Shown: positions 14,264-28,435 of the stretch, one piece after another
Position numbering within the stretch: the first letter of the stretch is position 1
Layout: each line of letters opens with the position of its first letter
Origin: an uncultured Planctomycetaceae bacterium
GTDB taxonomy: Bacteria > Planctomycetota > Phycisphaerae > SM23-33
Assembly: GCA_964401835.1 (NCBI GenBank)
Contig: CAYNZP010000006.1
Location: 34,020 to 98,019, forward strand
DNA: 64,000 nucleotides
Direction: 5' to 3'
Notes under the pieces: model-generated
The model's database searches: none
Seen by the model: only the letters and a program-made list of their open reading frames with translations
What the model was told of the DNA's origin: nothing
Position numbers and translations under genes: made by a program

Positions 14264-14401
14264 GGATGCATAGTAATACAGAGCAGCAAAATTGCAAACA
14301 CGGCTCTGGCAAAGACTCGTCCCAAAAGCCGATAACCGCTGTTGCTATTCACATCTATCGAGGATAATCTTTATTGAGCCCCTGACAGGTCTTCCCGTGG
14401 T

Positions 14402-14650
14402 CGCGACGCTTGATTTTTTGGTCGCAGACAAGGAACGAGAAGGATAAGATGCCGAAGCATCATTGACTTTCGAGTGACGATGTATGCGGCCAAAAGGGCA
14501 TGCGTCCCTTCGCGTTGCAGCAAAAATCGGCGTCTACATTGTTGCGGCTCCTCACCATACCATCAAGGTATGGTGTCGTCGCCGACGCCTTGTATCCACT
14601 CGATTTTTGTTGCAACGCGGCTCACGCGAAGTCCTGTCAGGGGCTCTTGA
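14402..14650 (+). repeat. conserved ~250-nt intergenic element, copy A (putative structured RNA / 5'-leader element); its paralogue lies at 25589-25841
   Basis: ~80% nucleotide identity to copy B over ~250 nt. Contains a perfect hairpin CACCATACC-ATCAA-GGTATGGTG. The differences between copies are compensatory, as detailed in the findings. Confidence 0.6.
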
Positions 14651-14688
14651 GCACTGCATAACAGACACGGATGTAAGGAGAAGTTGAA

Positions 14689-15183
14689 ATGGCAGAAAAC
14701 ATAACGGGAAAACCGACAGGCCAGGAACCCCCTATCGAGGGCAGCAAGATACTGGTCGTTGACGACAACGCACAGAATCTCGAGCTAATCGTCGCTTATC
14801 TAGATACCATTGATTGCAAGATTTCCACCGCTGTCGACGGCGTCGAGGCTCTGGACAAAGTTCAAGCCGAGCAACCAGACCTTATCCTGCTTGATATCAT
14901 GATGCCTCGCATGAGCGGTTTTGAGGTTTGCCGCAAGCTTAAATCAGACCCGGCCACGCGGGATATCCCGATAATAATGGTCACTGCTCTGAACGAACTT
15001 GGCGATATCGAGCGAGGTGTCGAAAGCGGCACGGACGATTTTATTTCCAAGCCGGTAAATCGTCTCGAACTGCTTACACGCGTAAAGAGCCTGCTTCGCG
15101 TTCGCCACCTCAAGAGTGAACTCGACCGTACGCTCGCCTACCTCAATAGTGTTGAAAGCGAAAGCCAGCCATCAACCAACTGA
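14689..15183 (+). CDS. stand-alone CheY-like response regulator receiver protein
   Basis: ILVVDDN ... DLILLDIMMP ... KP receiver motifs. Strong SD AAGGAG 8 nt upstream. Confidence 0.8.
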   Translation: MAENITGKPTGQEPPIEGSKILVVDDNAQNLELIVAYLDTIDCKISTAVDGVEALDKVQAEQPDLILLDIMMPRMSGFEVCRKLKSDPATRDIPIIMVTALNELGDIERGVESGTDDFISKPVNRLELLTRVKSLLRVRHLKSELDRTLAYLNSVESESQPSTN

Positions 15184-24996: not shown

Positions 24997-25557
24997 ATGA
25001 GTATAAAAGCAATCGAACTTCGTCGCGGGATGGCAGTTAATTACAAGGACGGAATCTGGGTCTGCCAGGAAAACGAAAAGGTCGCAAAGGGCAAGGGTCA
25101 GAGCTATCAGTCAATTTCCCTGAAGAATATCAAGACTGGCCAACTAATAAACGAAAGATTCCGCACGACAGCGGATTTTGAACAGGCAATCGTTGACCGC
25201 AAGCAGATGGAATACCTCTATTCCGACGGTTCGAATCATATTGTCATGGACAACGAATCATATGAGCAGTTCGAGCTGCCTGCCGAGTTAATTGGCGATA
25301 AGTCTGTCTACCTGACCGAAAATATCCAGATTGAGGTAACTTTCGTGGAAGGTCAGGCAGTCTCAGCAGAGTTACCCAATACTGTCGAGTTGGAAGTCGA
25401 AGATACGCCGCCCCAGGTCAAAGGGGCTACAGCTACAAACCAGCTTAAAGACGCCATCTGTGTCGGCGGTGCCAGGATAAAGGTTCCACCTTTTGTCGAA
25501 AATAGTGAAAAGGTCAAAGTCGACACGCGAACTGGCGATTATCTCGGCCGAGCCTGA
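24997..25557 (+). CDS. efp: elongation factor P
   Basis: KGKGQSYQSISLKNIKTGQ in the EF-P KOW domain. SD AAGGAGA upstream. Confidence 0.9.
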   Translation: MSIKAIELRRGMAVNYKDGIWVCQENEKVAKGKGQSYQSISLKNIKTGQLINERFRTTADFEQAIVDRKQMEYLYSDGSNHIVMDNESYEQFELPAELIGDKSVYLTENIQIEVTFVEGQAVSAELPNTVELEVEDTPPQVKGATATNQLKDAICVGGARIKVPPFVENSEKVKVDTRTGDYLGRA

Positions 25558-25588
25558 TTTTGAACCCCTAACAAAAACCTCCCGCGGA

Positions 25589-25841
25589 CGCGACGCCTGA
25601 TTTTTTGCTCGCAGACAAGGAGCGAGGAGGATACGATGCTTGTGGCATCATTGACGACGAGCGACGCCGTATGCGGACAAAAGGGCGGCGTCCCGAAGGG
25701 TTTTGCCGAAAATCGGCGTCTGCGGTGTTGCGGCTTCTCGCCATACCATCAAGGTATGGCATCGTCGCCGACGCCTTGCAGCCATCCGATTTCGGGCAAA
25801 ACGCGGCTAGCGCGAGATTTTTGTTTGGGGCTCTTGAAAAA
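25589..25841 (+). repeat. conserved ~250-nt intergenic element, copy B (paralogue of 14402-14650); it ends 4 nt before the kdsB ATG
   Basis: Aligns with copy A end to end and has the same hairpin (GCCATACC-ATCAA-GGTATGGC). The ORF-track N-terminal extension of kdsB (25605-25841) runs through it. That extension is considered non-coding because nucleotides, not amino acids, are conserved between copies. Confidence 0.6.
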
Positions 25842-26576
25842 ATGAGCACTATCGCGATAATTCCTGCACGCTACGCGTCAACTCGCCTGCCGGGCAAGCC
25901 CCTGCTGGACGAGACCGGAAAGACGCTGATCCAGCATGTGGTCGAAAACGCGAAACAATCCGCCAGCCTCGATCGCATTATCGTCGCGACCGACGATGAT
26001 CGCATTTTCAAAGCTGTCGAAACTTTTGGTGGCGAAGCCGTGATGACCGGCCAGTCCTGCAGGACCGGCACCGACCGGCTGGCTGAAGCTGCCCAAAAAC
26101 TCCAACTCGCACCAGACGACTTTATCGTCAACGTTCAGGGCGATGAACCGGACATCCCTCCTGCCTGCATCGATGAGCTGGTTAATCTGATTACAAGCTC
26201 CCAAGCCCCAATGGCCACGCTGGCAACCCATCTGCCAAATGACCAGGCTGGCGACCCGAACAAGGTAAAGGTCGTTCTGAACGGCAGCTCCAACGCCCTG
26301 TACTTCTCGCGTGCAAAGATCCCCCACCCGCGCGACGAAGAGGAAGTTACTTATCTTCTCCATCTCGGTATTTACGCTTACCGGGCTGAGTTTCTCCAGC
26401 AATTCACCACCCTGCCGTCAACACCGGCTGAGCAGGTGGAAAAACTCGAGCAACTTCGGGCCCTCGAGCATGGTTACAAAATCGCCGTAGCTGTCGTCGA
26501 ATACGAAGGAGGCGGCATAGACACACCCGAAGATTACGCGGAATTCGTCGATAAAATAAAAAATTTCCCAAAGTAA
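25842..26576 (+). CDS. kdsB: 3-deoxy-manno-octulosonate cytidylyltransferase (CMP-Kdo synthetase)
   Basis: IAIIPARYASTRLPGKPL ... VATDDDRI ... QGDEP. ~244 aa from the ATG at 25842. Confidence 0.85.
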   Translation: MSTIAIIPARYASTRLPGKPLLDETGKTLIQHVVENAKQSASLDRIIVATDDDRIFKAVETFGGEAVMTGQSCRTGTDRLAEAAQKLQLAPDDFIVNVQGDEPDIPPACIDELVNLITSSQAPMATLATHLPNDQAGDPNKVKVVLNGSSNALYFSRAKIPHPRDEEEVTYLLHLGIYAYRAEFLQQFTTLPSTPAEQVEKLEQLRALEHGYKIAVAVVEYEGGGIDTPEDYAEFVDKIKNFPK

Positions 26577-26716
26577 ATACGGAGCACTTACCGCGGCAAC
26601 TGTTTACTACAGTTGCCCCACGGTTGTCCGTAAAAAATTAAAAAAAACTCAAATTTGAATAAATGATACAACACTGCTCTTGTATAGGAGCGGAATATTC
26701 TGTAAATTTGGGGCCC

Positions 26717-28435
26717 ATGAGCAAAGCCATGGATTTATTGCGATCTGTAAAGGACCGCACAGACGAAACGGAATTCTACACCCCCCTTCCCGACGGATAT
26801 AAGGTCGGGTCCACCAAATACGTCGTTGTTCTCGGTACGGTCATGAGCGGACTCGGTAAAGGGATATTCTCTAGCAGTCTGGCCAAGATTCTAAAAGACA
26901 AAGGGCTGAATGTATCCGCAATTAAACTAGAGGGTTATCTCAATATCGACTCGGGAACACTCAATCCATTTCGCCACGGCGAGGTATTCGTCCTCGACGA
27001 CGGTATGGAAACCGACATGGACCTGGGCACCTACGAACGAATGCTGGATCAGGACCTAAGCCGGGCCAATTTCGCCACGAGCGGCCAAATTTTCTCGTCC
27101 ATCCTCACCAAGGAACGCGCCGGCAGCTATCTTGGCAGAGATGTCCAGATGATTCCGCACGTTACCGGAGAGGTCAAGCTTCGCCTGCGGGAGTTAGCTG
27201 TTAAAGACAAAGCCGACGTTGTCTTCGTTGAAGTCGGAGGCACGGTCGGCGACCTGGAAAATGCATTTTACATCGAAGCACTTCGCGAACTCTTCCATGA
27301 AGAAGGCGAAGGCTCGGTAGTCTTTGTCGCCCTTACCTACATCCTCTCCCCGCCGGCTCTTGGAGAACAGAAGTCAAAGGCAGCCCAGCTGGGCATAAAA
27401 AGGCTGATGGAATGCGGCATCCAGCCGGACATAATCGCCTGCCGTGCAGAGTCCAAGGTTACAGATAAGGTCCGCCAGAAGATATCGGTCTACACAAACG
27501 TTCCGATGGAACGCGTATTTTCAATGCACGACCTTCCGAGTATCTATCTGCTGCCCGAAATTATGCGAGAAGGCGGCATAGATAACGAAGTTGTCCAGCT
27601 TCTGAGTCTAGGCGGGAAGGTTAACTCCGCACAAGATGCACGAGCAGCCCAGCAGTGGTCAAAATTCGCTTCAAAGATTGGCAAGGCCAAAAAAACGGTT
27701 TCTATCGGCATTACGGGCAAATACACATCTCTGCGTGACAGCTACGCCAGCATAATCAAGGCACTTGAACACGCAGGAGTCGCCAACAACGCCAACGTCG
27801 AAGTCAAATGGATAGATACGACCGACATTACCGACAAAAACGCAGCCCAGGTGTTGGCCAGCGTCGATGGAATTATCGTGCCCGGCGGTTTTGGTGTCCG
27901 TGGTACGGCAGGCAAGATTGCGTGCATAAGGTATGCACGTGAAAAAAAAATGCCCTATCTGGGAATCTGCCTGGGCTTCCAGATGGCTGTTATCGAGTTT
28001 GCCCGTAGCGTTTGCGGCCTAGCCGATGCCGACAGCACGGAAATCAAACCAGATTGCAAAAACCCGGTCATAGATATCCTCCCTGAGCAGAAAAAGATCG
28101 AAGGTTTGGGCGGAAATATGCGTCTGGGCGGACAGGATATCGAACTCACTGCCGGTACGATGGCGAGCGAGATGTTTGACAATGAGAAAAACATACGTAT
28201 GCGTTTCAGACATCGTTATGAAGTTGATCCGAAGTACATTGAGACCCTGGAAAAGGCGGGCTTGATTTTCTCAGGCCGCCATCCGGAGCATCCTATAATG
28301 CAGATACTCGAACTACCGCGCGACCAGCACCCATACTTCGTCGGCACGCAGGCACATCCGTGCCTGACAAGCAGGCCCCTGCGGCCCCAGCCGATGTTCG
28401 TCGAACTCGTCGCAGCAGCACTCAAGGGAAAGTAA
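26717..28435 (+). CDS. pyrG: CTP synthase (glutamine hydrolysing)
   Basis: KYVVVLGTVMSGLGKGIFSSSLA ... GEVFVLDDGMETDMDLGTYER. GATase domain GICLGFQMAVIEFAR. The N-terminus is ~30 aa longer than typical. Confidence 0.9.
   Translation: MSKAMDLLRSVKDRTDETEFYTPLPDGYKVGSTKYVVVLGTVMSGLGKGIFSSSLAKILKDKGLNVSAIKLEGYLNIDSGTLNPFRHGEVFVLDDGMETDMDLGTYERMLDQDLSRANFATSGQIFSSILTKERAGSYLGRDVQMIPHVTGEVKLRLRELAVKDKADVVFVEVGGTVGDLENAFYIEALRELFHEEGEGSVVFVALTYILSPPALGEQKSKAAQLGIKRLMECGIQPDIIACRAESKVTDKVRQKISVYTNVPMERVFSMHDLPSIYLLPEIMREGGIDNEVVQLLSLGGKVNSAQDARAAQQWSKFASKIGKAKKTVSIGITGKYTSLRDSYASIIKALEHAGVANNANVEVKWIDTTDITDKNAAQVLASVDGIIVPGGFGVRGTAGKIACIRYAREKKMPYLGICLGFQMAVIEFARSVCGLADADSTEIKPDCKNPVIDILPEQKKIEGLGGNMRLGGQDIELTAGTMASEMFDNEKNIRMRFRHRYEVDPKYIETLEKAGLIFSGRHPEHPIMQILELPRDQHPYFVGTQAHPCLTSRPLRPQPMFVELVAAALKGK

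Follow-up and report, generated by a model that had tools for sequence, protein, structure and literature searches.

A dispersed structured repeat fills the efp-kdsB spacer of an uncultured marine planctomycete and gives rise to a falsely extended KdsB

Genes and features of the locus

The DNA examined here (the window) is a 64,000-nt stretch of a contig from an uncultured marine Planctomycetaceae bacterium (Phycisphaerae, Planctomycetota), within which the gene order efp-kdsB-pyrG is found. The efp reading frame closes with the TGA at 25555-25557, leaving a spacer of 284 nt before kdsB, and this spacer is filled along its whole length by one copy (copy B) of a structured element that is most likely co-transcribed with efp and kdsB (Table 1). 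The element is about 275 nt long overall and takes the shape of a Y, in which a closing stem (P1) of some 30 bp carries two arms, each about 100 nt long. The last in-frame stop codon upstream of kdsB (TAA, 25567-25569) lies inside the 5' strand of P1, arm 1 contains a Shine-Dalgarno (SD)-like GGAGGA-N6-ATG at 25625-25639, and the apical hairpin of arm 2 reads CCATACC-ATCAA-GGTATGG (25741-25759).

At the 3' end of copy B, the motif GGGGCTCTTGA is followed by AAAA (25838-25841) and then by the kdsB ATG at 25842. This layout, with 4 nt between the motif and the start codon, had been described in an earlier note made from the letters alone, and all of its details are correct by coordinates. The same note placed the corresponding motif of a second copy (copy A) 38 nt before the ATG of a response-regulator gene, with an AAGGAG in between; this too is accurate, the ATG lying at 14689 and the AAGGAG at 14675-14680. 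The kdsB leader is A-rich and lacks an SD sequence, as is the case for about half of the genes in the window.

The start and integrity of the downstream pyrG gene (window 26663-28435) vary by annotation. The mechanical ORF begins at ATG 26663 (590 aa), the JGI call begins at ATG 26717 (572 aa), and in one ENA assembly (L001, 99.95% identical) pyrG is split in two (366 and 193 aa), pointing to an indel there.

Table 1. Coordinates of the features discussed, in positions of the window.
Feature	Position	Strand	Basis or remark
Copy A of the repeat, between priA (minus strand) and the response-regulator gene	14374..14650	+	blastn against copy B; fold
Response-regulator gene downstream of copy A	14689..15183	+	Pfam Response_reg
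efp (elongation factor P), upstream of the spacer	24997..25557	+	ORF; Pfam EFP_N, EFP, and Elong-fact-P_C on identical product
Copy B, Y-shaped structured repeat filling the efp-kdsB spacer	25560..25837	+	278 nt; 78% identity to copy A
P1 closing stem, 5' strand	25562..25591	+	helix 1: 28 pairs, 15 with compensatory changes
Arm 1, long hairpin of copy B	25603..25682	+	helices 2-4
Spurious N-terminal extension	25605..25841	+	79 codons from TTG 25605 (JGI) or 39 codons from GTG 25725 (ENA/NCBI)
Internal ORF of copy B, behind SD-like GGAGGA	25636..25845	+	69 codons; TGA overlaps the kdsB ATG (ATGA)
Arm 2 of copy B, highest sequence conservation	25700..25802	+	helices 6-8; invariant columns; covariance model R1, 130 bits
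P1 closing stem, 3' strand	25803..25833	+	end 8 nt from the kdsB ATG; consensus structure
Conserved 3' motif GGGGCTCTTGA of copy B	25827..25837	+	sequence and copy alignment
True kdsB (CMP-Kdo synthetase, 244 aa)	25842..26576	+	TIGR00466/NF003952 from profile position 1; PDB KdsB chains; orthologue N-termini

The start of kdsB and its annotation

Downstream of the TAA at 25567-25569, copy B stays open in the kdsB frame, so ORF-based gene callers extend kdsB upstream to TTG 25605 or GTG 25725. The six-frame ORF at 25605-26576, which begins with TTG and encodes 323 aa, joins 79 codons of the element to KdsB, and homology to KdsB starts at residue 80 of this ORF, corresponding to ATG 25842. Four NCBIfam profiles (NF003952, NF009905, NF003950, and TIGR00466) align their first position at residue 80 onward; NF003952 scores 303 bits against the 323-aa ORF, and TIGR00466 scores 247.6 bits (cutoff 155), pairing residues 80-311 with profile positions 1-240. 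KdsB chains in the PDB align from residues 79-85 (E = 1e-62), with residue 1 of 1vh1_A paired to residue 80 and residue 1 of E. coli KdsB placed likewise.

A homologue search of 5.8 billion proteins gave the same answer. Among the 120 homologues listed, many of which are labelled Phycisphaerae, all 119 that are not the query's own sequence are 241-277 aa long and cover only the C-terminal 72-76% of the 323-aa ORF. The motif IIPAR lies at offset 4 in 103 of the 120, as it does in MSTIAIIPAR, with N-termini of the form MxxIAIIPAR, and one orthologue (P0019) begins with the same MSTIAIIPARYAS as KdsB read from ATG 25842. The proposal that KdsB homology begins at this ATG is therefore borne out by profiles, structures, and homologue N-termini alike.

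The earlier note had also predicted that automated pipelines would annotate the extended ORF, and they have done so. The JGI/IMG entry (P0125, 323 aa, found on three contigs) equals the window ORF at all residues except the first, where the start is TTG, while the ENA and NCBI entry (P0001, 283 aa) starts at GTG 25725. The two pipelines thus disagree on the start codon, and neither chose the one supported by homology. Among the listed homologues, the extension is present only in this self cluster (P0001 and P0125), which comes from the same genome, and the comparison of KdsB N-termini found no homologous extension in orthologues. The extension also lacks the properties of coding sequence: its codon log-odds are 0.006 per codon, compared to 0.33 for kdsB and efp, and its GC content at second codon positions (GC2) is 0.52, compared to 0.34-0.39 in real genes. 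When its 78 residues were run with HMMER against the full set of 1.84 billion representative proteins, there were four matches, none of them a KdsB: three were short ORFs within further copies of the element, located at unrelated loci, and the fourth was an unrelated repeat protein.

The N-terminal extension is spurious, as had been claimed, and the true start of kdsB is ATG 25842. The opposite view, that the 323-aa or 283-aa protein is real and represents a KdsB with an extra N-terminal domain, can point to the frame being open from 25605 and to the lengthened forms annotated by two pipelines. It is already close to refuted, however, by the lack of the extension in any other KdsB, the absence of codon bias, the disagreement of the two pipelines over the start codon, and the recurrence of the segment as a repeat at unrelated loci, where it carries frameshifts and stop codons. 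The lengthened KdsB is an annotation artefact of an ordinary sort, produced by a repeat. As a result, the KdsB entries for this organism in JGI/IMG, ENA, and NCBI begin with 39 or 79 residues that do not belong to the protein. Any copy of the repeat with an open frame will yield similar errors, and masking of the repeat before gene calling would remove them.

Copies of the repeat and their distribution

Eight copies of the element are known, five of them full length (Table 2). Copies A and B are 78% identical over 280 nt (blastn E = 2e-57). Copy C was found via P0121, a spurious 48-aa gene called inside it, and so a further copy of the repeat stands annotated as a gene, in this case within the dcw operon. 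The remaining copies are diverged and come from a second metagenomic lineage (L006, which is full length, L010, and L015) and a third (L027 and L028). Copies are 76-96% identical within a lineage and 56-70% identical between lineages, and they group by genome rather than by locus.

Table 2. Copies of the repeat beyond the window.
Copy	Location and neighbours	Orientation to neighbours
Copy C	L025/L026 4926-5198; occupies the 283-nt spacer between murF and mraY in the dcw operon; same samples/population as the window	sense
L006	between an aminotransferase gene and serA, both on the opposite strand	antisense
L010, L015	second metagenomic lineage	antisense
L027	third lineage; 5'-truncated	sense
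L028	third lineage	sense

The three copies of the second lineage are antisense to their neighbouring genes; all five of the others, which belong to marine lineages, run in the sense direction and lie immediately before or after genes. Copy A contains stop codons in all six frames, and the open ORFs of copies B and C are in different frames; the element is therefore non-coding. No relatives were found for a 93-aa ORF on its minus strand. Assemblies break within the element, and one Logan contig spans from inside copy A to inside copy B, which is behaviour typical of a repeat. That the element is a repeat is a direct observation from these copies.

Additional copies were sought in two ways. The covariance model of arm 2 (R1) found none in approximately 237 kb of retrieved sequence. 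Scans for the 19-mer of the apical hairpin gave no match in viral contigs (two scans), only three chance matches in the genome collection, and, in metagenomes, three true copies together with seven chance matches.

Two of the copies have peculiarities of their own. The murF gene, as called, ends at a TAA in the first stem strand of copy C, and a TAG lies directly after the 3' end of this copy, such that exact removal of the element would leave a murF stop codon at the junction. In the L028 copy, arms 1 and 2 are separated at about 195-235 by an additional perfect hairpin (about 40 nt, CCCAATCGCAACGTATTGCGATTGGG) that has the look of a small palindrome inserted into the repeat.

Secondary structure and covariation

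Copy B is predicted to fold with a free energy of -123 kcal/mol (z = -4.7) and copy A with -149.6 kcal/mol (z = -12.3). A consensus structure of 94 pairs was built on the five full-length copies, and in these 91.2% of cells are paired, compared to about 40% when the partners are slid by 1-3 columns. Double changes occur in 41 of the 94 pairs, compared to 4-10 when slid, and none of 500 shuffles reached the observed values for pairing and covariation. The covarying fold is thus an observed property of the element. The termini keep complementarity but not sequence (GAGCCCC, GAGCCTA, and GGCACTC in different copies), and 15 of the 28 P1 pairs covary.

Sequence conservation is concentrated in arm 2, at its apical hairpin and internal loops, and in distant comparisons unpaired sites change less than paired sites. 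Both strands of the element fold about equally well. Watson-Crick pairs account for 400 of 468 cells, and the exceptions include 27 G-U pairs on the plus strand and 15 A-C combinations, the latter being G-U on the minus strand.

The SD-like sequence of arm 1 (GAGGAGGA, 25625-25639) has an anti-SD-like counterpart, CUCCUC or CUUCUC, in a loop of arm 2 (25733-25738), and both occur at the same positions in copies A and C. A tertiary pairing between GAGGAG of arm 1 and CUCCUC of arm 2 was considered and rejected, since the variants show no covariation by eye across the eight copies.

Relationship of the element to kdsB translation

The tight junction between the element and the kdsB start codon had suggested control of kdsB translation initiation, for instance by occlusion of the ribosome-binding region. 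Partial occlusion holds up in silico: positions -20 to -9 relative to kdsB lie in the 3' strand of P1, where the fold prediction gives an unpaired probability of approximately 0. The start codon itself and the A-rich positions -8 to -1 are predicted to have no pairing with the element. Partial occlusion of the ribosome-binding region in this model is physically plausible; it has the appearance of a side effect of the repeat's location and not of a designed switch.

The broader proposal, in which the element is a dedicated cis-regulatory RNA, similar to a riboswitch or thermometer, that occludes the ribosome-binding region of the gene downstream, draws on several observations besides this pairing. 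Four copies (A, B, C, and L028) run in the sense direction with a start codon 8-55 nt beyond their ends, the covariation is very strong and accompanied by conserved unpaired loops, and both kdsB and mraY are cell-envelope genes. We nevertheless regard it as unlikely. The distance from the end of P1 to the downstream start is not conserved (8, 22, and 42 nt for copies B, C, and A, respectively), the other genes nearby are unrelated (a response regulator, and serA in antisense), and three copies are antisense to their neighbours altogether. The element is absent upstream of kdsB in the nearest relatives found (L019 and L021, at most 70% aa identity), where the spacers are 77 and 162 nt. The pairing appears to lack strand asymmetry, as expected of a DNA palindrome and not of an RNA that works in one orientation, and the grouping of copies follows the genome, not the locus. 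There was no Rfam match even at E = 10, and about half of the genes in the window share with kdsB an A-rich leader without an SD sequence. The comparative evidence does not support the element as a controller of kdsB translation, and because of this copy B is read as the insertion of a dispersed structured repeat.

A different route to kdsB control would run through the internal ORF of copy B. Here, translation from ATG 25636 would melt the structure and deliver ribosomes via the ATGA overlap onto the SD-less kdsB start. This coupling is attractive for copy B alone, with its strong SD-like sequence and ATG in arm 1 and a stop codon overlapping the kdsB ATG; moreover, the GGAGGATACGATG block is intact in copies B, C, and L028 and almost so in copies A and L027, and the equivalent ORF of copy C was called as a gene (P0121). 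Across the family it becomes very unlikely, as neither the length nor the frame of the ORF is constant: it has 69 aa in copy B, 48 aa in copy C, where it ends inside arm 2, and only five codons in copy A. In addition, the corresponding ATG is missing from the L006 lineage, the stretch with the SD-like sequence and ATG is itself partly paired, and the peptide is not conserved.

In one of the two relatives examined (L021, whose KdsB is 70% identical), the kdsB spacer contains, instead of the element, a tandem array of GAATGACGAAAT-like units (2838-2930).

Comparison with known repeats and structured RNAs

Correia elements of Neisseria and the ERIC (or IRU) sequences of enterobacteria are dispersed, non-coding, intergenic inverted repeats that occur within operons in either orientation; they are co-transcribed, form long hairpins in mRNA, and can alter the stability or translation of flanking cistrons. 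The element described here resembles them in being dispersed, non-coding, and intergenic within operons, with copies that cluster by genome. It differs in being about twice as long and in its three-helix Y shape; in addition, its termini are not conserved in sequence, and no duplication of TA or of another target was found. A likeness of another sort exists with the Rickettsia palindromic elements (RPE), which are in-frame insertions inside genes and are translated within annotated proteins. The present element is also a palindromic repeat whose sequence enters annotated protein sequences, but it lies upstream of the real start and is fused to KdsB only by the ORF caller.

Repetitive extragenic palindromes and their mosaics (REP/BIME), the palindromes tagged with GTAG or CGTC, and other stem-loop families are intergenic families defined by a common secondary structure (PMC3733652; PMC2267715). 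Such repeats often combine into larger composite folds and have been reported across phyla, including the PVC group (PMC3733652; PMC2267715). The units of REP families are 20-40 nt long, carry a terminal GTAG or CGTC tag, and reach high copy numbers (PMC3733652), whereas this element is a single 275-nt unit without a terminal GTAG or CGTC tag and was seen in three copies in about 90 kb. No RAYT/Y1 transposase gene was seen near true copies of the element.

With riboswitch-type leaders of the kind collected in Rfam, the element shares a multi-helix junction, heavy covariation, conserved loops, and four copies in sense orientation upstream of genes. Unlike those leaders, it has unrelated genes downstream, three antisense copies, and symmetric folding of its strands; it has no Rfam match and is absent from the orthologous kdsB leaders examined (L019 and L021). 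Over the whole window, Rfam gave no match at the gathering threshold, and a search of Rfam 15 with copies A, B, L006, and L028 down to E = 10 returned only noise (at most 17 bits, E of at least 0.58). BLAST of the element against phage and plasmid collections produced nothing similar, and no description of this element was found in the literature searched.

Nature and possible origin of the repeat

Taken together, these comparisons indicate that the repeat forms a new structured family with good support; its general kind is known, but it belongs to no named family. Two defining features of a miniature inverted-repeat transposable element (MITE), target-site duplications and conserved terminal sequences, were missing. 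Inspection of the flanks of all copies revealed no consistent target-site duplication; only L006 has matching flanks (TTA/TTA), and copies A, B, C, and L028 do not. Sequence-conserved terminal inverted repeats, which would serve as transposase binding sites, were not found, the termini instead drifting with compensatory changes. Every retrieved contig carried the insertions, such that neither an empty site nor a presence/absence polymorphism was seen, and there was no autonomous partner element in the sequence within reach. Variable termini combined with conserved loops in arm 2 are the opposite of what a classical transposase-bound inverted-repeat element displays, and resemble a functional RNA. 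Because these two MITE features are missing and unpaired sites are the more conserved in distant comparisons, the family is best described as working like REP/BIME, ERIC, and Correia-type repeats, without assignment to any of them.

We therefore favour, with a probability of roughly 0.7, the reading that copy B represents a single insertion of a dispersed repeat, about 275 nt long, non-coding, and rich in palindromes, that works in the manner of REP/BIME, ERIC, Correia, and MITE-type repeats, and that the kdsB start was artefactually extended across it. The element would have spread as mobile or recombining DNA, and any effect on kdsB would be incidental. Such an effect might arise if the 3' strand of P1 sequesters kdsB positions -20 to -9, or the long duplex might act as an RNase III or stability determinant in the operon mRNA. 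The repeat may influence expression of the operons that contain it (efp-kdsB-pyrG and murF-mraY), both of them essential, in this uncultured marine planctomycete.

The conservation of loops leaves some room for a more specific role. Possible, if doubtful, is a previously undescribed three-helix module of about 275 nt with the core CCAUACC-AUCAA-GGUAUGG, whose loops would be recognised by a protein and which would act either in operon transcripts, through their processing or stability or through translational coupling of the downstream cistron, or as folded single-stranded DNA (ssDNA), having spread through the Phycisphaerae as a functional mobile unit. A role wholly independent of the neighbouring genes, in which the copies are genes for a trans-acting structured RNA or serve as an ssDNA recognition module for some enzyme, would account for arm 2 loops that are conserved across lineages only 56-70% identical overall, for unpaired sites that change less than paired ones in distant comparisons, and for the lack of an Rfam family. 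Yet no promoter or terminator signals were detected in or after the element at copies A and B, the element abuts the stop and start codons of flanking genes, and it occurs in either orientation within operons, all of which make this highly improbable.

Just upstream of the 5'-truncated L027 copy is an unrelated insertion sequence (IS; 329-1713) with a 422-aa ORF that has no Pfam match. This ORF was considered as an autonomous partner and rejected; the IS that encodes it is an element in its own right, with 26-bp inverted repeats (GGGTGCATGTCATGTTTGTAGGTAGA) and a target duplication of 9 bp (TATCGCCGC), and its ends are unrelated to the repeat. The 19-mer CCATACCATCAAGGTATGG also occurs in three contigs of 36-39% GC, at L007 1288-1306, L009 684-702, and L014 201-219, about 35 nt upstream of a divergent Y1 transposase-like gene with the HUH motif MPNHFH; in L007 and L014 this gene adjoins a putative penicillin-binding protein 1C (pbpC-like) gene. 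Although the 19-mer is kept in all three contigs, a link of the element to Y1 (IS200-like) transposases was rejected, because three related AT-rich contigs amount to one event and the total number of matches outside the family fits random expectation. Finally, about 2-6 kb past the 3' end of the window, a region encoding a tyrosine integrase, a DUF3987 protein, and small ORFs (L029 3900-8000) looks like an integrated mobile element.
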